From an uncultured virus (IMG/VR IMGVR_UViG_3300014913_000010) (lineage: Duplodnaviria; Heunggongvirae; Uroviricota; Caudoviricetes), in the IMG/VR virus record IMGVR_UViG_3300014913_000010: a DNA stretch of 64,000 nt; one strand, given 5' to 3'. Below are positions 2,702 to 46,875 of the stretch, piece after piece. A program made the translations under genes and the position numbers. A model generated the notes under the pieces. It ran no database searches. It worked only from the letters and a program-made list of their open reading frames with translations, and was not told where the DNA came from. Position 1 is the first letter of the stretch, and each line of letters starts with the position of its first letter.

Positions 2702-3691
2702 TTATTCTCCTATCCATTGAGGGTTGTTAAGTGTCCATTCTATGGTGCTTTGCAGGGACTTATAAATAGTTATTGGCGGTTTCCATCCCATTGCCGCCAT
2801 TTTATACCCGGCTAGAGCATACCGTAAATCGTGGCCCGGCCTAGTACTGTGAAAGTCTACTATATTGTAGTATAGTGGACGGTCTAATATGTAGGCAATT
2901 GCCTGAGCAAGTTCAAGATTAGTAAGTTCTTTTTCACCGACGATGTTATACTTATCACGTTGATTGAATTTGTCAAGCAGGAAGTGAATTGCGTTTGCTA
3001 CATTCCGGGCATGGATATAAAACCGGGAGCCTGATTGTTTTCGTTTTCTATCCAGTGTGCCGTGGATAAAAATATATTCTCCTTTAATAATGTTATTTAT
3101 ACACAACGGAATAAACTTCTCCGGGTGCTGGCGTTCACCGAAAATATTCATACAATGAGTAATGAATCCCGGTAGACCATAGGTGTTCATATATGCAAGT
3201 ACTAACTCCTCACCACCGGCCTTGGTTGCACTATACGGGTTAGTAGAGTTATATCGATCCCACTCACTGTAGTCCCGGTCTGTCGGAGCCGGGCCGAATA
3301 CTTCATCTGTAGAGAAGTAAACAAATGCTTTTAAGTTCTTCTGTTTTCTGGCGAAGTCAAGCATATGCATAGTACCAACTACATTGGAATAGACAAATGG
3401 TGCAGGGTCTACTATTGAATTGTCCACATGGGTTTCTGCGCCCATATGAAAAATGTAGTCAATGTTATTGCACTCCCTCAATATGCCTTCAGATATTTCC
3501 TTAGTGAAGTCGAGGGTGAAAAAGTTTACTCTACTATTATCGAATGCATTGATATCTCTGACTCGATCAAGGCCGCTAGATGCATAGGTCAACTTATCGA
3601 AAGTAATAATATCCCAGTTAGTAGTTTTTAGAAAGTGCTCGATGAAGTGATGCCCCACAAATCCACATCCTCCAGTGATTAGTAATTTCAT
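2702..3691 (-). CDS. rmlB: dTDP-glucose 4,6-dehydratase-like NAD-dependent epimerase/dehydratase
   Basis: TGGCGFVG, DKLTYA, AETHVDNSI, STDEVFG, NPYSATK, QHPEKFIP, RPGHDLRY. Confidence 0.9.
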   Translation of the reverse strand: MKLLITGGCGFVGHHFIEHFLKTTNWDIITFDKLTYASSGLDRVRDINAFDNSRVNFFTLDFTKEISEGILRECNNIDYIFHMGAETHVDNSIVDPAPFVYSNVVGTMHMLDFARKQKNLKAFVYFSTDEVFGPAPTDRDYSEWDRYNSTNPYSATKAGGEELVLAYMNTYGLPGFITHCMNIFGERQHPEKFIPLCINNIIKGEYIFIHGTLDRKRKQSGSRFYIHARNVANAIHFLLDKFNQRDKYNIVGEKELTNLELAQAIAYILDRPLYYNIVDFHSTRPGHDLRYALAGYKMAAMGWKPPITIYKSLQSTIEWTLNNPQWIGE

Positions 3692-4675: not shown

Positions 4676-5308
4676 TCAAGTGATCTTAGTAACATTACTA
4701 ATCCCTTTTGTATGTACTACTTTATATATTGAATCAGCAATTGACTCAAGTTCTTTTTCGTGTGTCACTATGATAAGTTGAAAGTCCAGACGGTGTGATA
4801 GTTCAGCTAGTACTTGTCCGGCTTGATTAATTGTGTCTCTACCCACGAACCGTAACGGCTCATCTAGCACAAACACGTTTCTACTACGTGGATGCTCTAA
4901 TGACCATAGTACTACTCTGAAGGCAAAACTTATAATGTCTATAATACCGCCGCCCATATCATCCTTAGGAATATATTCTACTTCACCTTCCTTTATAATG
5001 GGTGTGCATGATATCCGGTTGTACTTCTTCTCAATAAGTAGTTCAAATGAAAAGGGGCGGTCAAATACAGAATTAATTGCTAATGTTAGTAGCGCATCAA
5101 TCCTTACCTTAATACGCCTATGGGTTATGTCTAATGACTTATTTATAATTTCACGGGCTTCAATCGTATCAGTTAATTCTGCTGATACTTCTTTTTTGCG
5201 TTTTATTTTGGTCTTCTTCTTTTTGAGAAGTTCTTTTTTGCGCCATTTCAAATGCTCAACTTTATCCGATACTGTTTTTAGTCGTTGCTTTGTTTGGTAG
5301 TAGTTCAT
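4676..5308 (-). CDS. SbcC/Rad50 (gp46-like) C-terminal half
   Basis: Coiled coil, signature-like MGGG, Walker B FVLDEP, H-loop IIVTH; no Walker A. Confidence 0.85.
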   Translation of the reverse strand: MNYYQTKQRLKTVSDKVEHLKWRKKELLKKKKTKIKRKKEVSAELTDTIEAREIINKSLDITHRRIKVRIDALLTLAINSVFDRPFSFELLIEKKYNRISCTPIIKEGEVEYIPKDDMGGGIIDIISFAFRVVLWSLEHPRSRNVFVLDEPLRFVGRDTINQAGQVLAELSHRLDFQLIIVTHEKELESIADSIYKVVHTKGISNVTKIT

Positions 5309-5530
5309 ATTTTTAAATTCCCCGGCTCGTCTGCAATCAACTACTTACTTCGATTAGTGTTAGCATTGTCTCCGCAAATGACCATACTCACTGTTTCATA
5401 TTCAACTATATAATTATCAGCGTGTCGGAGACTACCCCGACCTTGTTAAATATTAAAATTAGTAGTTTGATCATTAGTAGAAGTTCCCAGACAAGTTTCC
5501 TCGGTGGTATTCCGAACCGGGGAAACCTTG

Positions 5531-6196
5531 TTAGAGGTTATCAAAAATAACAGGTATCAGTTTCTTTACTTCCTCATGCAAAGGAGCCATTACTTCTATC
5601 ATCTGAGGATGGGCCGCAGGACCACACCGCAACTTGAAGATGTGCCGCCATTCACGGAAGTTAGCAGTCCATACAATTTCGGTCTTGGTTGAGTTAGGTA
5701 GTACTGACCGGGCCTTCTGGGGCGACCATCCAGCATCGAGCAACCGGTTGTAGTCAATGGTCGCGCCTGCTATACTCGCCAACCATATATCTGTATCGGT
5801 TACTTTATCGCCTTTTACTTTCATCATCTGTAGTACATCGAATGCATTGTACTCCCCTTCTTTTAGATCCAACCATAAGGGAATGATAAAAGTACAGCCT
5901 CCCTTGTAGTTAACGTATCGGGTGCTTTCTTGACTATACGCCGCCAACCGGTGTCTTACTATCTCGTGAGATACTCCCCTATCACAGATAATACGGATAG
6001 TCATTGCGGAGTGCTCTATTACCGAGTGATGCCCCCGGTTCAATACCATTGCGGTGAAAGTAGTAGAAGATACCTCGTCCATTTTGTCTTCGGACTTGTA
6101 GCAAGTCCTTCCAGCCTGTTCGATCAACCTTAATGGATATTCACTATCCATTATAGCCATGATTTTATAGCCCGGCCTTACTAATTCCATTTTCAT
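5531..6196 (-). CDS. thyX: Flavin-dependent thymidylate synthase
   Basis: GHHSVIEH, RGVSHEIVRHR, SQESTRY, ARSVLP, NFREWRH. Confidence 0.95.
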   Translation of the reverse strand: MKMELVRPGYKIMAIMDSEYPLRLIEQAGRTCYKSEDKMDEVSSTTFTAMVLNRGHHSVIEHSAMTIRIICDRGVSHEIVRHRLAAYSQESTRYVNYKGGCTFIIPLWLDLKEGEYNAFDVLQMMKVKGDKVTDTDIWLASIAGATIDYNRLLDAGWSPQKARSVLPNSTKTEIVWTANFREWRHIFKLRCGPAAHPQMIEVMAPLHEEVKKLIPVIFDNL

Positions 6197-17409: not shown

Positions 17410-18433
17410 AACCTTCCTCCTTCATAAGTGCTACTAGGTGAGTGAAGTTGTCTGTTTTGAACTTTGCCCGATCAACTCCTATTTCCATCGTGTGGGCATC
17501 CCTAATTATATGGGTCAAAAACCCCGGATTGATGTATATAGTCGAACTTTTCTTTACCTTACTACGCAATTTCACGGTTGACGAGGCTTCCCCGGCATTC
17601 GGGTCATTAGTAGTAAAGGTAATCATCTTCTTTTTGGCAGTCATTTTCATCCACGGATATCCATGCTCATCTTCTACTGCCATAGGAGCCACGTACCGCA
17701 CGGCTTCCACGGTTTCCTGTACCGGAAGTTTCAAAGTGTTTACTACTTTAAAATCGAAGTTCTCGGTATGCTCGCCTAACTCCGCATCTACAATACGAGC
17801 GCAAAACTTTCGGGACTTTGTGCTATCGGTGAAGTAGATCCAGTTTCCGAAAACGCAGAAGTGAGTAAGATTGTCATACATTACTAACTCACTCACGGTC
17901 TTTGCTGGTATGAGTATTTCCTGATCAATACCCGACTCCATTTTATATTCACTTATCCTTACATCATCTGTAGCGACTACTACATCGTCGCTAATGCTCA
18001 CACAAGTCATTGCAGGCTCATTCATTTCTTTACTTGCGGAAGGATAGCACATATTCATGGCCTTCATAAAGTCCTCAGGTAGTACTTCCCAGTTCCTTTT
18101 CTTTTTTAACTTCATTGATTTTATGGAGTCAATAAGATCCGGGGCATCCACGGTGTTAACTTTCGCCGTAGTACGTGGGGTCTTCATTACTAGTTTACTA
18201 CCTACTACTTTGATCTCGGCTTCGCCGGTCTTCGGCAATACGGCATAAAACTTTTTTGCTGGCAGGACACACTCAAGGTCTGACTTGTACTTAATGTAAA
18301 CGCAGATTCGATCATTGTAAGATACAATACCGTCTTTAGTAAAGATGACATACTTGTAGAAGTCATCTGTCCGGGCATCTTCCAATGGTCGCAATACTTT
18401 TAGTATCAATGTCGAAAGTTCTCCGCAATCCAT
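17396..18433 (-). CDS. DNA sliding clamp (DnaN/beta-like)
   Basis: 345 aa; VVVATDDVRIS, ILIPAKTVSEL, INPGFL; next to polymerase and clamp loader. Confidence 0.75.
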   Translation of the reverse strand: MDCGELSTLILKVLRPLEDARTDDFYKYVIFTKDGIVSYNDRICVYIKYKSDLECVLPAKKFYAVLPKTGEAEIKVVGSKLVMKTPRTTAKVNTVDAPDLIDSIKSMKLKKKRNWEVLPEDFMKAMNMCYPSASKEMNEPAMTCVSISDDVVVATDDVRISEYKMESGIDQEILIPAKTVSELVMYDNLTHFCVFGNWIYFTDSTKSRKFCARIVDAELGEHTENFDFKVVNTLKLPVQETVEAVRYVAPMAVEDEHGYPWMKMTAKKKMITFTTNDPNAGEASSTVKLRSKVKKSSTIYINPGFLTHIIRDAHTMEIGVDRAKFKTDNFTHLVALMKEEGYAVD

Positions 18434-18435
18434 AA

Positions 18436-18877
18436 CTACCTCCTTAATTTGTCCCTTACTTCCATTATTATTTTACCTAGAAAGTTTTGGCCTTTAATAT
18501 TAATGCATCTTGCACAATAGCAATCTCCCCCAGATGTTGTCGTGCCATGAGTTTCCTTCAATAAGTAATTCATTTCCTGTGTCCATGAGTAGTTTTGCTA
18601 TCCGTGGGTTCTGTTCGAACTTTAAGGAGACGGCTTTATTCATTATGAGAAATCTAACTTTTTTCCAATCACTTCTCATTTTAACTCGTCTACCTCGGGA
18701 CTTAGCAGTGCCTGGATCGGGAGCGTTTACTACCCAATCCCTTTCGTCTTTGTCTTTTGTTTTGAAGGCATGAAACATATGTTCACTAGTAAGATATACC
18801 TTGTCTTTATATTTGACTTCACTATTATAGAAATTACTCAGGAAACTATACTTGCCACTGTCAAAATTATCAATCAT
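18436..18877 (-). pseudogene. NADAR (YbiA) family protein, frameshifted in a G5 run
   Basis: FLSNFY, TSEH.F.A.K, AKSRGR, KFEQNP, LIEGN.W.DNIWG; the conserved C-terminus (GDCYCARC...GQNFLGKIIMEVR) lies in another frame. Confidence 0.8.
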
Positions 18878-18886
18878 GGTGTCATC

Positions 18887-20023
18887 CTATGTTCGTTTAC
18901 TTATACCGAATCCGATCTTCTTTACTAATGCCTTCTTTTCAGGAGCCATGTAATCGGCTCCTACTATCTCGGCCTTCACCCGATCCTTTATAATACGGCA
19001 GTTAGTCTTGTATAACTCCAGTCCTACCCAGTGGCGGTGTAGTCGTTCAGCCGCAACTGCAGTAGTACCACTACCCATGAAAGGGTCTAGCACTCGGCAG
19101 GGCTTTACTTTATTTGTTCTACAATCACACTGCTTCTCCCATCCAGTCGTCTCCCGGTAATTAATCCCGGCATAGTTAGCCGCACCACTCGGCGGTGTTA
19201 TTGTACCGTGCATGGTGCCTTTCCCTTTTACTTTTTCCTCATCTACTGTTTTCTCGTTTTTACGTTTGATCACTTTTATCTTTCGTTTGTATGGTGTTCC
19301 ACACTTGACACAACTACCATGCTCGGAAGTAGTCGCCTTAATACAACGTAATGGGAGTTCCAACGGAAAAGTAGCAAAGTGCTTTAGGTTTTTCTCCTTC
19401 TTGTTTCCCATACTCCAAACGTCACGAGGGAAGGTGCCACGGGGAGTCAATATAGAATACTGATCATAGTAGTAGTTCTGGGTTTTCGAAAATAAAAAGA
19501 TATGCTCGTGTGAACTCATCGGGCGACTACTCACTGGGTTCGGCATAAAAGTAGTTTTACTCCAGATAACATCTGATCGTAAGTACCACCCGGCTTCCCT
19601 CATAGCAAGGGCGGTCATCCATGGTATTCCTACTAGGTCGGTTTGCTTTAAAGTAGGTATGTTCCGGGCGGCTGACTTCTTTCTTTTCAACACTCGCCCG
19701 GAGGTTGGCCGTTTTCCTGACGGGGAGAAGTCACCGCCTAGCCCACCTGATCCATTGTAGCAGTCTCCTAGGTTCAGCCATACAGTACCATCATTTCGGA
19801 GTGCCGGTTTGATTGCTTCGAATAGTTCTACTAGGTGGTTTATATACTCGGTAGGTGTCGGCTCCTGTCCTAACTCGCCTTCTGCCGACTCATCGTCTAG
19901 GTCGTAATCCCTTAACTTCCAATACGGGGGAGAAGTAACAACAGTTTGAATAGTACTGGCCTTGATTTTACTTGCGGTATCAATACAGTTGCCACGGAAG
20001 ATCTTGCCTGTAGTAATTTTCAT
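18887..20023 (-). CDS. DNA methyltransferase (N4-C/N6-A, beta-type order) with Cys-rich insertion
   Basis: VTSPPY, HFATFP, VLDPFMGSGTT; CVKC...CDC insert. Confidence 0.9.
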   Translation of the reverse strand: MKITTGKIFRGNCIDTASKIKASTIQTVVTSPPYWKLRDYDLDDESAEGELGQEPTPTEYINHLVELFEAIKPALRNDGTVWLNLGDCYNGSGGLGGDFSPSGKRPTSGRVLKRKKSAARNIPTLKQTDLVGIPWMTALAMREAGWYLRSDVIWSKTTFMPNPVSSRPMSSHEHIFLFSKTQNYYYDQYSILTPRGTFPRDVWSMGNKKEKNLKHFATFPLELPLRCIKATTSEHGSCVKCGTPYKRKIKVIKRKNEKTVDEEKVKGKGTMHGTITPPSGAANYAGINYRETTGWEKQCDCRTNKVKPCRVLDPFMGSGTTAVAAERLHRHWVGLELYKTNCRIIKDRVKAEIVGADYMAPEKKALVKKIGFGISKRT

Positions 20024-32482: not shown

Positions 32483-32893
32483 CTACTCAAGATCGTCAAT
32501 CGTCTTGAATGATACTCGATGAAAGGTCTTAGTAGTTTTCACTGCTAGCCTTTCAAATCGCTCATCCCCGAGTACTCCCCTTGCTTTGGTGTTTGACACA
32601 TTCACCGAGTCAAGGAATTTCTTAGTAGATGCAACTGCTTTCTTGTACTTTCTAATATCAAGATCGAATGCATCAACGTCCTCAATTACTACCACTGCCC
32701 GGTTGTGTCCTCGGATAAGTGGTTTGTTGACTGACTCAGCATGACTTCTTAATTTTTCCTTTACTTCATTAAACCGAGCAGTCAAGTCCTTAATGTGTTC
32801 GCCCAACTGCTGACCTTCAGCAATTAATTCTTTTACGTTGCGAACACGCTTCAGCCGATTCAAGGTCTTTTTCTTTTTCTTAGGCATTGTCAT
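32483..32893 (-). CDS. Hypothetical protein
   Basis: AAGGAG RBS; basic N-terminus and coiled coil. Confidence 0.65.
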   Translation of the reverse strand: MTMPKKKKKTLNRLKRVRNVKELIAEGQQLGEHIKDLTARFNEVKEKLRSHAESVNKPLIRGHNRAVVVIEDVDAFDLDIRKYKKAVASTKKFLDSVNVSNTKARGVLGDERFERLAVKTTKTFHRVSFKTIDDLE

Positions 32894-33284
32894 TGTTTTC
32901 TCCTTTCCATTCTTCTACTACCGGTTTTTCTTCAAGGCTGATATGATTGACACGGCTAAAGAAGTAGGTGTATGCCTTCTTCTCATTAATCGTTACTACT
33001 TTCCGGTTATAAAGATTGTCTTTCCTTCCTTTTTTATAACCCTCAATAGCATCACACTGGCGAAGTACTTCTTTTATGTTGTTTACTTCCATAAGTTCAC
33101 CGATTACATAACTACCGTTGTCGCATTCAACCATTGCTGGGAAAGGCCCAAGGTCAATTATTTTGGCATTGTGAAGTATAGCCGTATCAACGTTTACTAC
33201 ATAGTGCTCCACTGCCGAGTATCTCACTTGACCTACCTTGAGCGTACCATAGACAAAGATTCTGCTGATTTTTTCCTCATTCAT
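32880..33284 (-). CDS. Gamma-glutamylcyclotransferase (AIG2-like)
   Basis: IFVYGTLK, GPFPAM, GELMEV, DAIEGY, LYNR, AYTY. Confidence 0.9.
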   Translation of the reverse strand: MNEEKISRIFVYGTLKVGQVRYSAVEHYVVNVDTAILHNAKIIDLGPFPAMVECDNGSYVIGELMEVNNIKEVLRQCDAIEGYKKGRKDNLYNRKVVTINEKKAYTYFFSRVNHISLEEKPVVEEWKGENNDNA

Positions 33285-33339
33285 TTTCTGTCCTCCGTTT
33301 GGTGTTTAGTACTACTACTACTTTCGACTATCGAAAGTT

Positions 33340-33392
33340 AATCTCCAATGAGCCCCACGAAGTATTACTACCTCGTGGGGCCGATGATGATT
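33340..33392 (-). repeat. Conserved intergenic RNA hairpin, copy 4 of 6
   Basis: Stem GGCCCCACGAGGUA-GUAA-UACUUCGUGGGGCU. Confidence 0.85.
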
Positions 33393-34026
33393 AACCATTC
33401 AATATATTACTAATTGCATCCTCATTCGGTCGTTGCCGTACTAACGTGTGCTGTTTGTGGTCAAGTTTGTTGTACTGCTTCGGGAATACTTTCTTGAAAA
33501 GATTGATTGACCACCTACACGTTTTCTTTTCATTTTTCCCGAGTGCATGACCGAACTCATGTAAAAAAGTAATAATGGAAAGGTTGCCCCTCATGGTAAT
33601 CGTATGACTACCGGGGGAATAACTACTACTATCTGACGGATTCATTTTAGTGTCCCTGATAATTGCATCCAGATCAATACCGTCGACTACTACCGTAGGC
33701 ACGGCAATGTCATACAAGGATGCAAGTTGCTCAGCGAGTACTATGAGACCATCGAGACGCATCTGATTCGTTTTACTACCCCACAACTTTAAGGACTTCC
33801 ATCCTTTCAGTGCCGGGATAACACCACGACGATACTTGATCTCATCGTCAAGTACTTCCTCAACTGTTTCCGGGTAGGCATTACTTTCCATCATTGCCGA
33901 TGTTATGTTAGTAATGTCACCACTACTTCTGCCCGTTCCGTTGTTGACTACAGATGTATTATCGTTACAACTACACTCATCCAAGTCGCCATTGCATTCA
34001 GAACATACATTCAGTTGATTACTCAT
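33391..34026 (-). CDS. Zincin-like metallopeptidase (HExxH)
   Basis: TFLHEFGHALG; AAGGAGGACAAAA-ATG RBS. Confidence 0.65.
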   Translation of the reverse strand: MSNQLNVCSECNGDLDECSCNDNTSVVNNGTGRSSGDITNITSAMMESNAYPETVEEVLDDEIKYRRGVIPALKGWKSLKLWGSKTNQMRLDGLIVLAEQLASLYDIAVPTVVVDGIDLDAIIRDTKMNPSDSSSYSPGSHTITMRGNLSIITFLHEFGHALGKNEKKTCRWSINLFKKVFPKQYNKLDHKQHTLVRQRPNEDAISNILNG

Positions 34027-34092
34027 TTTTGTCCTCCTTGTTGGTTTCCAGCCAACTGTTTATTGTTTACTACTATTTGGATCATCGTCTAC

Positions 34093-34148
34093 TGATTCTC
34101 CAATGAGCACTGCGAAGTGTACTACCTCGCAGTGCCGATGATGAATCA
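34093..34148 (-). repeat. Conserved intergenic RNA hairpin, copy 5 of 6
   Basis: Stem GGCACUGCGAGGU/ACUUCGCAGUGCU; basal stem changed compensatorily to UGAUUC/GAAUCA. Confidence 0.85.
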
Positions 34149-35576
34149 TTAAACATCAAACATACTATCTGGTCTACTAGCAGTATATTCTTGTTGTTCC
34201 TCGGTCTGTTCATTAGCACCGAGTGCGCCAAGGTTGTCTGGGTTACGTCTACCCTCAAACAATTGAGCACGTTGAATAAAATGCCGCAGTGCATCAAGTT
34301 GTTCGTCACTAAGTACTTCCATTTCAATCGTGACAGGATCGCTATTGTCGGTTGGTTCTACTACCGGCTCAACATCTGCCGGGGAGTCGTAACCTTCCGG
34401 TATAGTATCCATACCTAATGGGAATAACCGAAAACGCTTTCCAGTCTTTACTATATTGAAACCGAATCCCCACTTGAGATTCTTAAGGTTAGTCAATTGA
34501 CCACTAACCAATTTCAACTGCTTCCCACTTTCCAATCTACCGAAGTCCCGGTCGAGCATACTAACTATATCTTGCTTAGTACACCATTTGGAAATAAGTA
34601 TACGAATAATAGCGCCGGTTTTAATATCGGCTTTTGGTAGTCGTTGTTTTTTAGCATTGGGATGAATGAACTTTTCTTTAAAGTTAGTACATGCAATGCG
34701 CGACCGAGCCGACCGGATAAATTGCTGTTCGTAGTACTCGCCGGTAGTATTACCATCGTTATTAGTTCTGGAGGGTACTTGTTGACTAACTGCCTGACGA
34801 GCTTCAAAAGAAGTTCGTTTCAGCGAATCAACAAAATCTTGAAACCGTGAGCGATCATTAATTACTACACCGCCTTTAGTTGCAAGGTCAATCCATCGTT
34901 GAGTAATAAGAATCCAACTACTAATTTTTGCCCACTCGACTGTACCCGAATGCATACGAAACTCCAAAGTGTTTCGAATAGCATAGGACTTAAAATTCAA
35001 ACTACTTCTCCGTCCTAACTGATTACTATACCAGTCAAAAGGATTTTCGTCAGCCCTACACCTTCTTGTACCGTAATCAGACCACGGCTTGCAGTAGGTG
35101 TTGCTCAGTCGACTATCGGGCAATGCATAGAAGAAGTACTTCTCATCATTACGATATGCATTGACTACATTTCTAATAGTGTCAATCGTTTCCCCAGCCA
35201 TACCATGATGGACGTGCAGGCCGCAAGTCCTGCTTGCCGTAGCAAAAGGATTTCCGGTTCCATCATCTAAAGCATTGCAAACTACTTTTATGGCCTTCAT
35301 GCCTTCTACTCCCTTAAGAATAGGAGACACAATTTCCATGTTATGGGGAAACTGCCGACCCATTTGACTATTGAGTGTCATAACTGATCCATCTGGTTTG
35401 ATCTTCCATGTAGTAAAGTTGTCTTGAGCAGTGTCGTGACCGTACCGCCTAGTGACTACTACATCATGGTTGATCATGTTATCAGCAAAGTACTGCCGTA
35501 ATCTATCGGCAATCCTTTCCTCACTAACCGTGGCATGGCATTCAATCTCCAGTCCAATAGTTCTGTCCTCATTCAT
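34149..35576 (-). CDS. Putative amidoligase (COOH-NH2 ligase) enzyme
   Basis: TIGLEIE, W.IKPDGS, EIVSPIL, CGLHVH, SLNF, TLEFR.HSGT. Confidence 0.85.
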   Translation of the reverse strand: MNEDRTIGLEIECHATVSEERIADRLRQYFADNMINHDVVVTRRYGHDTAQDNFTTWKIKPDGSVMTLNSQMGRQFPHNMEIVSPILKGVEGMKAIKVVCNALDDGTGNPFATASRTCGLHVHHGMAGETIDTIRNVVNAYRNDEKYFFYALPDSRLSNTYCKPWSDYGTRRCRADENPFDWYSNQLGRRSSLNFKSYAIRNTLEFRMHSGTVEWAKISSWILITQRWIDLATKGGVVINDRSRFQDFVDSLKRTSFEARQAVSQQVPSRTNNDGNTTGEYYEQQFIRSARSRIACTNFKEKFIHPNAKKQRLPKADIKTGAIIRILISKWCTKQDIVSMLDRDFGRLESGKQLKLVSGQLTNLKNLKWGFGFNIVKTGKRFRLFPLGMDTIPEGYDSPADVEPVVEPTDNSDPVTIEMEVLSDEQLDALRHFIQRAQLFEGRRNPDNLGALGANEQTEEQQEYTASRPDSMFDV

Positions 35577-35658
35577 GCTGTCCTCCATTTCGCCGGTAGT
35601 AATACCGGCAAGTTAGTAGTTATTAATATTTCGTCTCCATTTATTATACACTACTTTT

Positions 35659-35713
35659 AATCTCCAATGAGTACTGCGAAAGTATTACTACCCTCGCAGT
35701 ACCGATGATGATT
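35659..35713 (-). repeat. Conserved intergenic RNA hairpin, copy 6 of 6
   Basis: Stem GGUACUGCGAGGGUA-GUAA-UACUUUCGCAGUACU. Confidence 0.85.
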
Positions 35714-35717
35714 AAAA

Positions 35718-36626
35718 TTAGTCACCGTAAGAAACTCGTTTAGGTGGTGGATTACCTAAAGCGGTTGCCGGTGCAGGATAACCTCGACGACCGTAGTAAC
35801 TATCTACTATATTGTTATAAAAGGCCTCATCCGAGTCCTCAGGATCGTCGTGATTTACTTCCCTAGTTACTACTACCGGCTCAGGGTCTTCTTCGTAACG
35901 TCCAAGGTTCGTAAACTCCATCGTTTCAACGTCTACCATGTAGTAGTGCAATGGCTTAGTGAAAAACGATTTTATTTTCTTAACCTGAACACTAGTAATA
36001 CCGGCCTTGTTAGTATACCGTAAAGCATCCTGCACAATTTGCTTAGTGCTACAAAATATCCGGACTCCTAATGAGTCCCGAAGGTCTACTACACACATAG
36101 GCCGGGATGAGTCACGTGCAAAAAGTACTACATTTTCAATGAAGTTCACTGCTATCATTGAGTAGCTTTGAACCGCATTAAGTAGTTCTTTAGTGAACCC
36201 TACTTTTTCAACGCATCGAAAAAAGGCTTCGGTATCACTACCACTTTTTATTTTCGATTTTACCCGATGCAATTTAGCAAGGTCAAACGCATCATGCATA
36301 GTACCGTTATGTACTATAGCCCACTCATCACCTACGAAAGGCTGAGTGTTTAATACGTTTACTTCACCCATACTAGCGTTACGATTATGACCGACGAACA
36401 GGCGACAATTCCGGTTTACTATTGCATCCTTGAAGTAGTCGCTTTGTTCCATGAACTCACTTGCCTTGATTGCTGATTTCTCCGTAAGTAGTTCGCTATC
36501 ACTAATAGCAAAGAACCCGGTTCCATCAGTACCACGAGTTTCTGAAACTACGGCAAGTACTTTCATAAACTTAGCAAGTACTTTCGGATCTTTCGGATTG
36601 CCTACATAACCATAAATTCCACACAT
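35718..36626 (-). CDS. Class II (Ntn) glutamine amidotransferase
   Basis: True start MCGIYG after AAGGAGG; RGTDGTG, GHNR.AS, NTQPF, HNG, DTE. Confidence 0.9.
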   Translation of the reverse strand: MCGIYGYVGNPKDPKVLAKFMKVLAVVSETRGTDGTGFFAISDSELLTEKSAIKASEFMEQSDYFKDAIVNRNCRLFVGHNRNASMGEVNVLNTQPFVGDEWAIVHNGTMHDAFDLAKLHRVKSKIKSGSDTEAFFRCVEKVGFTKELLNAVQSYSMIAVNFIENVVLFARDSSRPMCVVDLRDSLGVRIFCSTKQIVQDALRYTNKAGITSVQVKKIKSFFTKPLHYYMVDVETMEFTNLGRYEEDPEPVVVTREVNHDDPEDSDEAFYNNIVDSYYGRRGYPAPATALGNPPPKRVSYGD

Positions 36627-36822
36627 ATTATCCTCCTTTGGTAGTCCTCCAAGACTACCGGTTAAATTAACTACATTATCTTTACTACTTCTTTCAGATC
36701 GCCTTAAATGATCTGTTCCGCTCTCATCCCTCATAATTGTAAGTATTTAAGCAATTCACTTATTTACTTAATCATGGGATGAAACCATAACACATGATTT
36801 AAGGCAGTGGTAGTAACAAGAC

Positions 36823-37225
36823 CTAACGTGATCGTCGTAGTCGTCGGAGTCGACGATTTACTAACTTTTGTTTTTCACGATTTTTATTATGATAATGACA
36901 CACATCTAATTTAATTGTTTTAGTATAGCACATTGAATATGAGTAAACAAGATTTTTTGCTCCCCAGTTTCTAACGTGCGGTACTTTTTTAATCGGACTA
37001 CTTTTGTCGGGAATAGTCATAACTGGACTATTGCAATATCTACATATTTTCATCATTGTTAGCTCCCTTTACTATATCAATATCAATACCACGAAAAGTT
37101 TCATTATCTATTTGATAGTAGTTCGTCCAATTAGCATGGCTTTTTCCGATGGAGTCGTCGTGCTGATAAAAGCTAATGAAGCAATAGTGTTTATTGTTCA
37201 TTTCCATAAATGTAAAAGTATCCAT
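36823..37225 (-). CDS. Two small early proteins (36823-37056; 37040-37225, starting MDTFTF)
   Basis: GGAG RBSs; first ORFs downstream of the long leader. Confidence 0.55.
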
Positions 37226-37239
37226 TTTAGTACTCCTTA

Positions 37240-38167
37240 TAGTTAGGTTATAACAGGACGGTAGTTGTTTGCTTTTCCTAGGACTTTTATTATGCCTAGT
37301 ACTATTGAGGGACAACTACCACCCCAAGTTACAACGGCGTACAATCAATGGATTGACCAATTCTTTTCCTAGGACTTAATAGGCGCCTAGTACTATCGTT
37401 TCAAAAGGTCGCACCATATCATATACAACCGTGGGATTTATAGGGCTGACTTTCGTCTTTCCCACCGCCTCGGCTCTACTACCTGCGGATCTACTATAGT
37501 TGTCAACTTTTCCTAGGACTTAATATGCCTAGTACTATTGTGACGTGCTTTTCGATACCGGTACTACTAATGTTTTCACTCGCCTGCCGTCCCAAGGAGA
37601 TTTGGAGGATGGGTTATGAACTAAACCACCGGAGGAGGTGGATTTACTATGTCCTAACGGGTTTTATTGGTAGCACTAATCGTTTATAGTGCAATCGGCG
37701 CACCGGACGCCTACCAAAGTCGGGAGTGTCAATTAGTATTTCGGATTTGAACCGTCCAACCTTTCGGTAGTAGTTTTCTCATGGTGTGTTTGATCCATTA
37801 TCTATACCGGCGGTAATAGTTGGCATATACCGCACGTGGCGAATTTTGTTTCATTAAAGTTTTACTACCACGATTAAATATTAAGGAATATTTTAATTAC
37901 CATTCAATTAGTAGTTGACCCTGAGTCATTTATTTTTCGTTTTGACTTCGCCCTAGCAAGTTCGCCCGAAGGCAAAAAGTAGGAGTCAATCGCATCCATC
38001 GGATTTTTTCGAGTGCCGTTTCCCACGGCCCCCAAGGTCTACTAATTGTGTGAGCATGGCGCGTGAGGTCAACCGGTATCGAGGGTAGTACTAACGATGG
38101 TGCTGGTAGTAGTTGCCCCCGGTCCTAGTGACCCCCGGTGTTGCCGTGCTCGATATGTCAAAGAACT
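37240..38167 (-). ncRNA. Candidate large structured RNA / 5' leader of the early operon
   Basis: ORF-free, many stems with UUCG/GAAA tetraloops, long-range complementarity, three repeated modules. Confidence 0.65.
38156..38166 (-). promoter_or_regulatory. boxA-like antitermination element
   Basis: GTTCTTTGACA just downstream of the promoter; resembles boxA (GCTCTTTAACA). Confidence 0.45.
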
Positions 38168-38172
38168 GATTA

Positions 38173-38201
38173 AAAGTAACATTTTCAGTGTGTTATGTCA
38201 A
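38173..38201 (-). promoter_or_regulatory. Sigma70-type early promoter
   Basis: TTGACA-17 bp-(TG-n)TACTTT with AT-rich upstream sequence. Confidence 0.65.
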
Positions 38202-38219
38202 CATTTATTTTCATACCGG

Positions 38220-38533
38220 TCTAGATCGCCTTATATATAGGCCAAAAAACGTAATGATTTCATGGTGTTACGGGAGTTAAAATTATTTTCAAAATAATGC
38301 GCTTTTTTTCGCCTTATAACCTATTGGATTTATTGATAAAAATAGGCCCAAAATAGGCTAAAAAACCGTGTATTTTCGGGGAGTTATAACCCATAAATCC
38401 GGGAGATCCCCTCAAATTACCACAAAGTGGTATAAAAACGACCTAAAAAACGGACTACTACCAAAATAGGCGAAAATAGGCCATTTTTGCCATATGCCGG
38501 GAAACCGGGCAAATTGGACTACTAATAGGTCTA
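38220..38533. repeat. Non-coding region with short A-tract repeats (AAAATAGGC, CGGGA, TTATAACC)
   Basis: AAAATAGGC at about 38339, 38350, 38463 and 38473, with partial copies at about 38237 and 38525. Confidence 0.55.
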
Positions 38534-38758
38534 CTAATATTTGATTGATTCAGATAGGATATCGACAGGATTATAAGTAGAAGTAGGGGAAGGACAACTA
38601 TAATCTAACCACTCCACTAATTGGGAGTACTCATTTAAGTGGCAACCGATTATATGGTCTACTAATCGATTATAGTTGTCCTTATACCTACCATCTTTTA
38701 GTCGTCGAAATTTAGGCAGGACATATTTGCAGTACTTACATTGATAGACGAATGCCAC
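38534..38758 (-). CDS. Small C2H2-like Zn-finger protein
   Basis: CKYC...HIIGCH; GGAGG RBS, GTG start. Confidence 0.55.
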   Translation of the reverse strand: MAFVYQCKYCKYVLPKFRRLKDGRYKDNYNRLVDHIIGCHLNEYSQLVEWLDYSCPSPTSTYNPVDILSESIKY

Positions 38759-38761
38759 CTA

Positions 38762-39424
38762 CTAATCCTCTTCCCACTCATCTTCTTCTTCATCGTTGTC
38801 GTCAAATTCATCTGGAATTTCTTCCTCGCCTATATGGTTTAGATTACTTCCCTTTTCTATATCACTTGCTTTCCATCCATCGTTTACTAATTCTATACAT
38901 CGGGAGCAGTAGTCGTCAGTGATATCAAATCTTTCCGAATGGAGTGAGCAGTACCACATATCAGGATCGTGAGCATTACCATCATGCCGCCAGAAGTTCT
39001 CCCGGTAGTCATCCCACGGATCTACTTCCTCATTTATTTTGTATTCATACTTATCAATACGATCAAAATGATCTACTACCTCCGCTAAGGTATGGAATAC
39101 CGGGATACCCAACTCCTCACACCTTTTAAGTTCAGCCATTACTCCGGTAGATGTTTTCTCCCCTGATATCACGAGGGCGCACTCAGAAACATCGAGCCAT
39201 GCTAAAGTATTTTCGTAGTAGTCATTAATACCTAATTCTACTCCATCACGCCGCATCAACGTAAAATGGTAATCAAACCACGGCACAAACGGCGCAAACC
39301 CTGCGGCTAGTACTTCTACGCCTATTTGCATCCCTGACCGCATATTTTCCAGTACACCTAAAACGTTATCGGATGAATAACAACCGAGTATTGCAACCCG
39401 GTGACGTTTACTTACTACTGCCAT
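38762..39424 (-). CDS. DUF4406/nucleoside deoxyribosyltransferase-like fold protein with acidic tail
   Basis: PFVP, LAWLDVSEC, STGVMAE...A/C..LGIPVF pattern. Confidence 0.5.
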   Translation of the reverse strand: MAVVSKRHRVAILGCYSSDNVLGVLENMRSGMQIGVEVLAAGFAPFVPWFDYHFTLMRRDGVELGINDYYENTLAWLDVSECALVISGEKTSTGVMAELKRCEELGIPVFHTLAEVVDHFDRIDKYEYKINEEVDPWDDYRENFWRHDGNAHDPDMWYCSLHSERFDITDDYCSRCIELVNDGWKASDIEKGSNLNHIGEEEIPDEFDDNDEEEDEWEED

Positions 39425-42985: not shown

Positions 42986-44341
42986 TTGGGAGAAGTAGTG
43001 CAATTTAATCGTATGTACCCAATGAGGTATCATGCTGAGCAGGCGAGGTTATGGGCTTCGTCTGCTCGTTATAATGTGGTGCCTGCCGGTCGCCGTAGTG
43101 GTAAGACGGAGATCTGCGGAAAAAGAAAAGTAGTCATGAAAGCCTTACTGGGTACGGACTTCCCCGACCCTCGTTTCTTTTGTGGTGCGCCTACCCGTGA
43201 TCAAGCAAAGCGAATCTATTGGAAGGACTTAAAACTAATGACTCCTAATGAGTTCATTACTAACATTTCTGAAACTATGCTTTGCATTACTTTAGTAAAC
43301 AATGCGGAGATCCATGTACTTGGTATGGATAAACCGGAACGTATCGAGGGTAGTCCTTGGGATGGAGGAGTACTCGATGAATATGGGAATATGAAAAGCG
43401 AAGCCTGGGGAGAGCATGTTAGGCCTGCACTTTCGGATAGGCTGGGATGGTGTGACTTCATTGGTGTTCCCGAGGGTAGGAATCACTACTACGACTTATA
43501 TAAGGATGCTCAGGAAAAGTGTGCCTATGATATTCGAAAAGGACGACTACCTGAGTGGAATCACTTCCATTGGTATTCATCTGATATACTACCCGCTTCT
43601 GAGATTGAGGCTGCAAGGCGTGACTTAGATGAGTTGACTTTTGCTCAGGAATACGAGGCCTCCTTTGTTTCCTTCTCTGGTCGTGCCTACTACCCCTTCC
43701 TTGATACCCTTCATACTAACCGCCTTCAATACGACCCTGCCGGGGATCTTGAGATATGCCTTGACTTCAACGTATCGCCCGGTGTAGCAGTGATAGTACA
43801 AGAGCAGTGGTTGCCTACTTCTAGTGAAGAGGAAACATTTGGAGATGGAATAATAGGGGAAGTATACATACCTCAGAACTCCAATACTGTTGCGGTCTGT
43901 GATAAGTTAATTCAGGACTGGGGCAACCATGAAGGCAACATATACTTCTTTGGTGATTATACAGGTGGTAGTAGAGGGACTGCTAAAATTATGGGTAGTG
44001 ACTGGCAGATAGTAAAGGATAAAATGCATGGGCATTTCGAGTCAGGGCAGTGTGTATTTAAGGTCAGGCCGAATCCTCGAGAAAGAGATAGAATCAACTC
44101 TGTTAATTCTCGACTACTATCGATAGAAGGAGATATTCGAATGATGCTTGATCCATCTAAAGCGAAGTACACCATTAAAGACTTGGAGGGTGTGACTTTG
44201 CTGGAGGGTGGTAGTGGTGAACTTGATAAAAACAAGAATAAGGACTTGACTCATTTAAGTGATGCACTCGGTTATCGAATATGGGAAAAGTACCCTGTAA
44301 AGCGTCGGTACGTGCCGAGTGGTCAACGGTATCACAAGTGA
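42986..44341 (+). CDS. Terminase large subunit
   Basis: AGRRSGKT, GAPTRDQAK, GVLDEY, GVPEG, FAQEYEASF, DFNV, HLSDALGY. Confidence 0.95.
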   Translation: MGEVVQFNRMYPMRYHAEQARLWASSARYNVVPAGRRSGKTEICGKRKVVMKALLGTDFPDPRFFCGAPTRDQAKRIYWKDLKLMTPNEFITNISETMLCITLVNNAEIHVLGMDKPERIEGSPWDGGVLDEYGNMKSEAWGEHVRPALSDRLGWCDFIGVPEGRNHYYDLYKDAQEKCAYDIRKGRLPEWNHFHWYSSDILPASEIEAARRDLDELTFAQEYEASFVSFSGRAYYPFLDTLHTNRLQYDPAGDLEICLDFNVSPGVAVIVQEQWLPTSSEEETFGDGIIGEVYIPQNSNTVAVCDKLIQDWGNHEGNIYFFGDYTGGSRGTAKIMGSDWQIVKDKMHGHFESGQCVFKVRPNPRERDRINSVNSRLLSIEGDIRMMLDPSKAKYTIKDLEGVTLLEGGSGELDKNKNKDLTHLSDALGYRIWEKYPVKRRYVPSGQRYHK

Positions 44342-45249: not shown

Positions 45250-46875
45250 ATGGCAACGTCAACTGCGACTAAGGTAGTAAACATCAGGAAGCCTGCAGAG
45301 GAGACAAATTTAAAGTCTACTAATCCGCTTTTCGATAAGTACTTTGAGGAGTGGCGTTTTCTCAATGCGGCTTATGAAGGGGTTCGCGCCTTAATTGCTT
45401 ATGGCACATTGTACCGGCATGAACGGGAATCTAAAAAGAACTACAAGCGACGTATGGCTACAGCCTACGGGTTTAGCTATAGTAAGTCGGTAGTAGACAT
45501 TTTTAATTCATACTTATTTCGAAAAGAATTTCCAAAAGAGATTGCTGAATCACTTACGAAAGATGAGCAGTGGAAGGCATTCCAAAAAGATTGCAATTTG
45601 GAAGGAGACGAGTTCGATGATTTCTTTGTGGATGAGCAACGCCATGCCTCCATCCTCGGTCATGTAGGACTATTAGTAGATAAGCCTAATACAGAAACAT
45701 TGAATCGTGCTGAAGAAAAGGACTCAGAAATTTATCCCTATGTAGTAGCATATAAACCAATGGCTATCTTAGATTGGGAGTATGAACGGGATAAGACCGG
45801 GCGGCGTATACTAACTTATTTAAAAGTACTCGACGATGATGAACGCTATCGGGTATGGACTCGGGAGAAGTGGCAGATATGGGAGATAGTCACTGCCCAG
45901 TCATCCCAGAAAAACGCTGCTGGAGTAAATCCGGTTGAGGAAGTAGGTAATCAAAAGGGTAAGGCTGAAATTACCGGGAAGGGAACTGCTGGAGTACTAA
46001 TTGAGGAAGGCGACAATGAACTTGGGGAGATTCCGTGGGTGTGGTTATACAATCAAAGAAGTAATATCGATAAGGAAGTAGGCGTCAGTGATATAGTAGA
46101 TGTTGCTCGGATCGATGCAAGTATAATTCGCAACCTTTCTCAGATTGAAGAAATCGTTGACTACGCCGCCTTTCCCATGATGAGGAAACCGATGAAAGAA
46201 GCGGGTAGTCCTACCGGTGCTGATGAGTCTGGACCTACTGCTATTCTTGAGTTTGATCCTGATAAACCGGAAAGTAAACCTGACTGGTTAGCGGCAGAAG
46301 TAGACGGCCCGGTGAAAGCAATTATTGATGTCATTAAAGAGAAAGTAGGCGAGATATACCGGTCATCCAATATCGGCGGTATGAGTGCAACCGAGATAAG
46401 TAAACAGGCGAAGTCAGGGGTAGCACTTAAAACTGAATTTCAACTACTTAACTCCAAGTTAGTAAAGAAGGGCAAAAACGTAGTAAAGGCCAAAAAGAAA
46501 GTAGTTGAGTACTGGCTCAAGTGGCAGGATGAGTGGGATAAGTATAAGGATGAAATAAAGTACGATCATATACAATCCTTTGAAGTACAAGATATGGTGA
46601 GCGATCTTGAGAATATCCTTACTAGTACCGTACTTGTCACGGGTAGTGGTAGTTATAAAACGGAGATCCAGAAGTTAGTAGTTCGTATGGTACTTCCGAT
46701 GATCGACGACGAAACCCTCGCCAACATTGATAAGGAAATTGAAGACGGCGTGTTTGAAGGCATTGGAGAGTTTTTCGGCAACGAAGCCCTAGGTATGGAG
46801 GGGGAAGGTAATCCACCTAACGGCTTTGTACCCGGCGACGAAGGAGCAGTAAACCAAAACGATACAGAGGAGTAA
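45250..46875 (+). CDS. Portal protein
   Basis: 541 aa after TerL; YKRR, NELGEIPWV, SGVALK; acidic tail. Confidence 0.85.
   Translation: MATSTATKVVNIRKPAEETNLKSTNPLFDKYFEEWRFLNAAYEGVRALIAYGTLYRHERESKKNYKRRMATAYGFSYSKSVVDIFNSYLFRKEFPKEIAESLTKDEQWKAFQKDCNLEGDEFDDFFVDEQRHASILGHVGLLVDKPNTETLNRAEEKDSEIYPYVVAYKPMAILDWEYERDKTGRRILTYLKVLDDDERYRVWTREKWQIWEIVTAQSSQKNAAGVNPVEEVGNQKGKAEITGKGTAGVLIEEGDNELGEIPWVWLYNQRSNIDKEVGVSDIVDVARIDASIIRNLSQIEEIVDYAAFPMMRKPMKEAGSPTGADESGPTAILEFDPDKPESKPDWLAAEVDGPVKAIIDVIKEKVGEIYRSSNIGGMSATEISKQAKSGVALKTEFQLLNSKLVKKGKNVVKAKKKVVEYWLKWQDEWDKYKDEIKYDHIQSFEVQDMVSDLENILTSTVLVTGSGSYKTEIQKLVVRMVLPMIDDETLANIDKEIEDGVFEGIGEFFGNEALGMEGEGNPPNGFVPGDEGAVNQNDTEE

Follow-up and report, generated by a model that had tools for sequence, protein, structure and literature searches.

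In the 64,000-nt stretch of tailed-phage DNA that was analysed as a whole (hereafter the window), three near-identical repeats are probably three equivalent hairpin arms of a structured phage RNA, in which they would act as docking modules for a common partner. The region that holds them is predicted to encode a conserved structured RNA on the minus strand, which would be transcribed from about position 38170 to about 37250 and would measure roughly 0.9 kb. Each arm would consist of an inner stem-loop standing directly on an internal loop with AGUA on its 5' strand and GAA on its 3' strand, which is a sequence of the sarcin-ricin type. The features and their coordinates are collected in Table 1.

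The window carries the genes of a tailed phage, with the large subunit of the terminase starting at 42986 and the portal protein at 45250, both on the plus strand, and with minus-strand genes encoding a DEAD-box/Hjm-like helicase, a GGACT protein, an Amidoligase_2 protein and a class-II glutamine amidotransferase. A search of its full length revealed no tRNA genes. The repeats are placed in its only stretch of at least 350 nt that is free of any ORF of 70 aa or more (37316-38533), and the region 37250-37885, taken as the conserved part of the RNA, likewise contains no ORF of that size. This gap is flanked by two genes for small cysteine/histidine-rich proteins of 74 and 77 aa. The 77-aa protein is zinc-ribbon-like and has an arginine-rich tail, which is C-terminal in the window and N-terminal in the related phage L001 (see below); it matched no Pfam or PHROG family and has only two relatives among 5.8 billion proteins. 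The next ORF downstream of the RNA on the same strand has its ribosome-binding site and ATG at about 37240-37223, and the downstream operon comprises small ORFs, the glutamine amidotransferase, the amidoligase and others.

The repeat unit is 32-34 nt long and reads, from 5' to 3', AUAGUA, CUAGGC, a variable loop, AAGUCCUAG and GAAAAG. Its three copies were found exactly where the earlier note had located them: the pattern ATAGTACTAGGC-N(4-12)-AGTCCTAGGAAAAG gave three matches, on the minus strand only, while none of 100 dinucleotide-preserving shuffles contained any, and the same three copies were recovered by a repeat search as families D2, D6 and D8. They start 91 and 144 nt apart. A metagenome contig of independent origin (L004) is identical to the window over the whole region, and the repeats are therefore not an assembly artefact of a single record. 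The caution expressed in the earlier note, that AGTA is enriched across this genome, is well founded, since the 64 kb contain 689 copies of AGTA and 827 of TACT; the words TAGTAG and CTACTA occur 104 and 118 times, respectively, against about 20 expected from composition. A loose pattern of AGUA, a stem of at least four pairs and GAA was found 15 times (both strands), against 6.2 +/- 2.4 in 100 shuffles, the largest value being 11. The generic AGUA/GAA pattern alone is thus weak evidence, because it is common in an AGTA-rich genome, and it is the exact triple repeat, its location in the sole ORF-free gap and its conservation in relatives that make it more than a chance occurrence.

Table 1. 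Features of the predicted RNA and of its three arms in the window
Feature	Position	Strand	Basis
Sequence-conserved part: core and 3' domain with the three arms	37250..37885	-	L001 alignments, pair counts, BLAST
Poorly conserved 5' part of the presumed transcript	37886..38172	-	ORF-free; aligns weakly to L001; extent inferred
Promoter-like site: TTGACA, 17 nt, TACTTT, with TG before the second hexamer	38173..38201	-	Inferred
Arm 1 core: AU-AGUA, inner stem CUAGG(C)/(G)uCCUAG, variable loop, GAA-AAG	37507..37538	-	Exact pattern match
Arm 1 outer helix, 5' strand GUCA	37541..37544	-	Pairs with 37502-37505
Arm 1 outer helix, 3' strand UGAC	37502..37505	-	Pairs with 37541-37544
Arm 2 core: the 12 + 15 nt of arm 1, longer loop	37363..37396	-	Exact pattern match
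Arm 3 core: same 12 + 15 nt as arm 1, 7-nt variable loop part	37272..37305	-	Exact pattern match
Arm 3 outer helix, 5' strand	37312..37325	-	Pairs with 37255-37268
Arm 3 outer helix, 3' strand; can also pair with 37476-37486	37255..37268	-	Pairs with 37312-37325

The phages belong to a rare group from sediments, of which three lineages are known, namely that of the window, that of L001 and a strain about 90% identical to the window (hereafter the ~90% strain). L001 (record G002) is a complete 83-kb phage genome with terminal repeats and the same gene order, in which the two small flanking proteins are conserved (60% and 50% identity) and a syntenic ORF-free gap aligns with that of the window (BLAST E 1.8e-47). 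The ~90% strain was found on contigs of three marine or marine-sediment metagenome runs (X4, X5 and X8); none of the 15 public runs listed with the stretch is on record as RNA. Searches of IMG/VR with DNA patterns (the arms and three conserved blocks), and with the amidotransferase, the helicase and the 77-aa protein as anchors, gave only the contig of L001 for the RNA, and a search of 5.8 billion proteins gave 10 relatives of the amidotransferase. The JGI metagenome search that provided L004 also gave L005, a locus with an amidotransferase of 44% identity and a different gene order, in which the amidoligase and the amidotransferase stand back to back; blastn detected no RNA in 8.7 kb of this locus. 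No match to the RNA was obtained in L008 (helicase of 47% identity) or in its 63-kb record, and the ORF-free gap of L008 resembles a tRNA cluster. Because the DNA seen of L005 and L008, which are more distant relatives sharing the neighbouring genes, is without the RNA, the latter is not essential to that gene set.

Wider searches were negative. Blastn found nothing similar to the region in 50,697 phage records, the nearest virus record (G001) has no match to the RNA, and the two annotation gaps of MW202621.1, the phage with the nearest terminase (56%), contain no arms; these gaps are GC-rich and resemble unannotated coding sequence. The one match among GTDB genomes lies inside an alcohol dehydrogenase gene of a MAG and was rejected as a chance match. 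No description of this RNA was found in the literature, and the L001 contig is not mentioned in the searchable supplements of a catalogue of candidate phage RNAs (PMC10690425).

The sequence-conserved part of the RNA comprises a core (window 37885-37545) and the 3' domain. Using RNAalifold on a two-sequence alignment of the window with L001, all 61 predicted pairs of the core form in both sequences and 13 of them are changed on both sides, and in the 3' domain nine of 41 predicted pairs are changed on both sides and still paired; these counts lean towards the predicted structures, which were derived from the same two sequences, and two full sequences and one partial strain are too few for a statistical test of the covariation. 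When the partners in the core were slid by one to three columns, 29-44% of cells were paired and zero to two double changes were seen, and none of 500 column shuffles attained the observed pairing values. The ~90% strain offers a small independent check on the core structure: of its 11 listed core substitutions, nine are at unpaired positions, one converts a U-G pair to U-A and one breaks a terminal pair.

Several of the pairs are G-U, which the other strand would read as A-C, and the RNA is therefore assigned to the minus strand; the folding z-score is -2.25 for that strand and -0.65 for the plus strand (20 shuffles each). The presumed 5' end is placed from a promoter-like site whose -35 hexamer and spacer motif, CTGAAAATGTTAC, are conserved in L001. 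This site is a weak one, as a consensus promoter scan did not list it. An extended -10-like sequence, TGnTATAA, was read by eye at the 3' end of the RNA in both phages, and no terminator-like site was seen at that end. A candidate intrinsic terminator at 37641-37626 was rejected, having a 16-nt loop in L001 and a U-rich tail that is paired in a conserved long hairpin.

Rfam 15 gave no match at the gathering score over the whole window and, at E values up to 10, only sub-threshold noise in window 36500-39000 and in L001 4200-5650. The families without a match include GOLLD, ROOL, raiA, OLE, Dictyoglomi-1, RNase P and the group I and II introns, and the identifications as a group I or II intron, as RNase P or as tmRNA were rejected for want of a match.

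When folded singly, each arm of the window forms an outer helix, the AGUA/GAA loop and an inner hairpin, the last having 5-6 bp in its stem and 7-9 nt in its A/U-rich loop. Arms 1 and 3 fold with z-scores of -2.08 and -2.96, and arm 2 with one of +0.29. The outer helix of arm 3, GGUAGUUGU/ACAACUACC, can be extended by eye to 14 pairs, G-U included, of which RNAfold forms nine or ten. The earlier note had named an outer helix for each copy, and all three are present as written, but the closure of arm 2 by GACC (37407-37410) opposite GGUC (37355-37358) is not supported. Judged by its z-score this closure is no better than chance; in the ~90% strain two positions of its 3' strand are altered and no change is listed for the facing strand, the helix that closes arm 2 in L001 is another one and directly abuts the loop, and GACC can pair in a local upstream hairpin instead.

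Six arms, three of the window and three of L001, were compared by direct reading and single-arm folds, as MAFFT did not align them. The arms of L001 are located at the same three places (5228-5258, 5368-5418 and 5483-5513) and both AGUA and GAA are kept in all six, although two of the inner stems are wholly different in L001 and still paired. Arm 1 of L001 retains AUAGUA and GAAAA around a different inner stem that still pairs, and has an outer helix of 5 bp, GGUCA/UGACC. Arm 2 retains AGUA/GAAA with yet another stem and is closed directly by a helix of 7-8 bp. Arm 3 is near the sequence of the window, with two changes, in the stem and the bulge, and has a long equivalent outer stem (folding z -2.56). 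Beside AGUA/GAA the inner helix is closed by a C-G pair in four arms, and by A-U and G-C in one arm each. The earlier note had proposed a comparison with homologues: in this homologue GAA is kept opposite AGUA and the adjoining helices covary, which supports the view that the repeats form hairpins at the RNA level, as parts of a large structured RNA. A covariance model built from four arms scored the three window copies and arm 3 of L001 (51.0 bits) at 51-58 bits and all others at 12.7 bits or less; arm 1 of L001 was at noise level (10.8 bits) and arm 2 was missed.

The ~90% strain is informative at closer range. Between 37287 and 37535, 21 of its 23 substitutions are listed and all 21 fall outside the arm cores, which occupy 63 of the 249 positions; by our own arithmetic the chance of this is about 0.002, the two unlisted substitutions being unplaced. 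Its arm 2, which lies mid-contig, has the 12 + 15 core nucleotides unchanged and one substitution and a 2-nt deletion in the loop (at the places of 37379 and 37383), and its arm 3 loop is the same as its arm 1 loop (loose contig ends). The outer helix of arm 1 carries four substitutions and one insertion in the 3' strand (37500-37504) and two substitutions and two insertions in the 5' strand (37543-37545), changes which, by our reading, would maintain and lengthen the helix. All three arms are of the arm 3 type in the lineage of the window and in the ~90% strain, whereas those of L001 differ from one another.

Since the RNA is placed directly upstream of the next ORF on the same strand, with no terminator-like site at its 3' end, we considered whether it is a cis-acting leader of the downstream operon, its arms being sensors or effectors that are riboswitch-like or titrated by a protein. 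The segment 37255-37268 has two mutually exclusive partners, 37312-37325 and 37476-37486, both of them conserved, and the second pairing covaries between the window and L001 (columns 77-85 with 326-338), so that the alternative pairing of the 3' strand of arm 3 could be the switch. We regard such a leader as unlikely, and the switch likewise. With about 900 nt the RNA far exceeds known leaders, the TGnTATAA at its 3' end in both phages could alone drive the operon, and the amidoligase and amidotransferase of L005 are back to back without it. Moreover the enriched words of this genome and their complements elsewhere in the RNA can create spurious alternative pairings, and no riboswitch or T-box model matched at E up to 10. 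In T-box Stem I, the specifier loop has an S-turn next to unpaired bases, and the earlier note had speculated that an invariant AAG after GAA sits where the specifier codon would be. This triplet is not conserved, reading AAA, ACG and AGU in the three arms of L001, and no antiterminator or T-box sequence was seen in the RNA; the T-box suggestion is thus not supported.

Helices that contain a sarcin-ricin loop are rigid and kinked, and their groove is distinctive. The canonical sequence of this motif is AGUA opposite GAA (PMC1865062, PMC8450098), which agrees with its naming in the earlier note. According to PMC8450098, the motif in its standard form is a 5 x 4 loop. From top to bottom it has a sheared A-G pair, a trans U-A pair that forms a triple with the bulged G, a pair of two A residues and a variable lower pair, for which the observed combinations include U-A and C-A, the lower U-A being less stable and more ambiguous than any other variant. 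As a modular element it turns up repeatedly in large RNAs, among them ROOL, raiA and class B RNase P (PMC13085918).

In all six arms the AGUA strand runs 5'-to-3' into a Watson-Crick helix, with no listed change in the ~90% strain, GAA follows that helix immediately on its 3' side, on the other strand, and the A of AGUA and the G of GAA are directly against the inner helix. Over two full genomes and one partial strain the core is invariant and the adjoining helix covaries. The lower position is U with A in five of the six arms and C with A in the other; a lower U-A may form a Watson-Crick pair, which would give a smaller form of the motif. On the far side of the loop, arm 1 has a 3 x 3 non-canonical stretch followed by a covarying outer helix, arms 2 and 3 of L001 are closed directly by a helix, and arms 2 and 3 of the window have long asymmetric linkers. 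The arms fit the sarcin-ricin motif (also known as the G-bulge, S-turn or eukaryal loop E type) in sequence and polarity, and from sequence alone an S-turn geometry would be expected. They share with it AGUA/GAA set against a Watson-Crick helix in the same polarity, an invariant core with variable flanking pairs and recurrence within one molecule (PMC1865062, PMC8450098 and PMC13085918), and differ in that their lower pair is mostly the ambiguous U-A and that arms 2 and 3 of the window are without a regular helix on the far side.

Helix 95 of 23S rRNA shares AGUA/GAA with the arms, which are present in three copies, and ribosomal sarcin-ricin loops are protein-binding sites (PMC8450098), and the arms could accordingly be decoys of that loop or of 5S loop E for translation GTPases, ribosomal proteins or ribotoxin-type defence nucleases, as the earlier note had also envisaged. 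However, the hairpin loop that adjoins the core in helix 95 is absent, the arms having instead their short stem and A/U-rich loop, and these loops vary freely between close strains. A conserved 12-nt helix-95 sequence has no match with up to two mismatches in the RNA and four elsewhere in the window, which is the chance level. Judged by their primary sequence, the arms are not strict mimics of helix 95, and we find the decoy explanation very improbable.

We attach equally little belief to the notion that the repeats arose by a recent and selectively neutral duplication within a spacer that evolves fast, their match to AGUA/GAA being coincidental. The generic pattern is indeed common in this genome, and copies that are identical in one lineage and not in L001 are what recent copying would give. 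Nevertheless the arms of L001 keep AGUA/GAA at the same places with different stems, and the arm cores are unchanged in a strain with at least 21 substitutions in 249 nt of the 3' domain. The word enriched at the L001 locus is another one, TGAGTA/TACTCA (46 and 31 occurrences against about 4 expected), yet its arms read U or C before AGUA, and the arm motif is therefore independent of the word enrichment.

That the repeats act as DNA, as operators or iterons for a protein recognising the interrupted palindrome CTAGG...CCTAG, is the least credible explanation of all, for even though there are three exact intergenic copies near other direct repeats and each contains a CCTAGG palindrome (three of the eight in the window are here), two of the three L001 arms have unrelated stems that still pair, so that RNA pairing and not a DNA word is kept, the half-site spacing differs between the copies (10, 12 and 12 nt), G-U pairs occur in the flanking helices, and the arms sit in a region rich in compensatory changes. 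A CRISPR repeat or repeat-mimic was rejected because the loops differ, the spacing is irregular and the L001 arms are mutually different, and CsrA-type GGA sites were rejected because GGA is absent from arm 1 of L001.

We therefore return to the reading of the repeats as docking arms. The AGUA/GAA element of each arm would be either the small sarcin-ricin form closed by U-A or a form in which U and A make the lower non-canonical pair, and the arms would dock one common partner. In the lineage of the window, arms 1 and 2 seem to have received copies of the arm 3 sequence; as the arms of the window and of the ~90% strain are alike and those of L001 differ, copying of one arm onto the other two is the simplest reading. 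If such copying is tolerated, the arms would do the same job and be interchangeable. The identity reaches into the stem and the 3' portion of the loop, which suggests a partner that reads sequence, i.e. a protein, while the divergent stems of L001 suggest that an S-turn with a hairpin shape is the minimum requirement. The partner would more likely be a protein, of the phage or of the host, bound in up to three copies; the main alternative, which is less likely, is RNA-RNA contacts of the arms, by which the fold or an oligomer would be built, as in other large RNAs. The 77-aa zinc-ribbon-like neighbour is a candidate partner by its position only. The proposal of the earlier note that the repeats are multivalent binding modules is a reasonable one.

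Among known RNAs the nearest precedent for several such loops in one molecule is the Dictyoglomi-1 RNA (RF01703), a bacterial non-coding RNA with four conserved sarcin-ricin motifs (PMC13085918). It differs from the RNA described here, which gives no match to its covariance model, is borne by a phage, measures about 0.9 kb and has arms that are near-identical within a lineage. ROOL, GOLLD and raiA are, like the phage RNA, large and highly structured, and some are found in phages or prophages; they differ in that none of their Rfam models matches here and that the window has no tRNA genes. A 7 x 6 sarcin-ricin loop is confirmed in 3D structures of ROOL and raiA (PMC13085918), and GOLLD and ROOL are described as RNA-only multimers (PMC12286853 / 10.1101/2024.12.08.627333). 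The RNA is a family absent from Rfam, within the known kind of large structured phage RNAs, and its arms would add new examples of a known motif, unusually arranged as a near-identical triple. It is conceivable, though we would put it forward only tentatively, that it constitutes a new class of large ornate phage RNA whose three interchangeable arms recruit three copies of one host or phage protein or, as is the case for GOLLD and ROOL, let the RNA assemble into an RNA-only multimer; a factor associated with the ribosome or with translation and the neighbouring arginine-rich zinc-ribbon protein are candidates for the protein recruited.

To our knowledge, phages have few large structured RNAs, and what the known ones do has yet to be explained. 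The RNA described here adds a further large phage RNA family. It also has an unusually simple and testable design, in which three copies of a well-understood 3D building block would be set on a conserved core, and the apparent copying from arm to arm would be a clear case of concerted evolution of modules inside one RNA.

In the window, a set of minus-strand genes encoding a class-II glutamine amidotransferase, an Amidoligase_2 protein, a 211-aa protein with a HEFGH motif and a GGACT cyclotransferase was identified, and the set resembles a system for amide or peptide ligation carried by the phage. An amidoligase and an amidotransferase are also encoded side by side in the more distant relative L005. 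The 77-aa CxxC...CxxH protein, whose gene adjoins the putative minus-strand structured RNA, may bind nucleic acid. It carries an arginine-rich tail, placed at the C-terminus in the window and at the N-terminus in the related 83-kb phage L001, and only two relatives were found in the protein collection searched.

Positions of the genes, repeats and short motifs described in the text
Feature	Position	Details
Amide/peptide gene set	window 32880-36734	minus strand
77-aa CxxC...CxxH protein	window 36823-37056; L001 5588-5854	minus strand in the window; adjoins the RNA
CUAUAG, self-complementary hexamer	window 37494-37499; L001 5266-5271	just 3' of arm 1, the first AGUA/GAA hairpin of the RNA
Direct repeat, family D5	window, within 38237-38482	10-mer, AAAATAGGCC type; 4 copies
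Direct repeat, family D1	window, within 38237-38482	34-nt unit; 3 copies
Imperfect inverted repeat	window 38326-38400	30 nt
Tandem repeat, family D4	window 38512-38535	two 12-mers; minus-strand sequence AGTAGACCTATT and AGTAGTCCAATT
Recurring element of L005	L005, about 2850-2910, 3540-3590, 4925-4975, 6135-6185	~50 nt

We observed that the CUAUAG hexamer falls inside a block conserved between the window and L001, and, provided that it stays single-stranded, two RNA molecules could base-pair with each other through it. Another conserved word of the RNA, the 11-mer GCAGGUAGUAG (37476-37486), is complementary to the 3' strand (37255-37268) of the third AGUA/GAA hairpin and also to a 5' stretch of the same molecule (38102-38112), these complementarities being the inverted-repeat pairs I16 and I23. 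Moreover, the 3' end of the RNA in L001, as read from its sequence, is perfectly complementary to that phage's own 11-mer. The 11-mer may act as a conformational switch, or its pairing may be a side effect of a word that is repeated genome-wide.

Repeated sequences are also present outside the RNA. Upstream of it, in minus-strand context, a cluster of direct repeats, along with the imperfect inverted repeat, lies between the upstream gene and the promoter-like site, and these elements could be regulatory sites or iterons. The two tandem 12-mers immediately follow the upstream gene's stop codon; at the same place in L001 (4240-4310) another unit, ATGAGTAG..CC, occurs in three copies and is built on that phage's own enriched word.

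In L005, a hairpin-containing element with the core ...GCGCATTAC...GTAGTGCGTCC... is repeated ahead of successive genes. Each copy is followed by a strong ribosome-binding site, and the element probably serves this phage specifically as a promoter or as a processing site. In L008, another distant relative, a stretch without an ORF (18256-18940), located downstream of the helicase region, contains tRNA-like sequences.

Words over-represented on both strands were found in the whole window and in L001 1-12891, and they are lineage-specific. In the window these are TAGTAG and CTACTA (104 and 118 occurrences, about 20 expected) and GGTAGTAG (17 versus 0.8 expected), while in L001 they are TGAGTA (46 versus 4.9) and ATGAGTA (26 versus 1.5). 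The enriched words of the two phages differ by a GT-to-TG swap, and when window and L001 are compared the same swap is also seen inside the RNA, where it is compensated. The swap between phages and its compensated counterpart within the RNA suggest that the words are recognised by a factor that changes its specificity in step with the phage genome.
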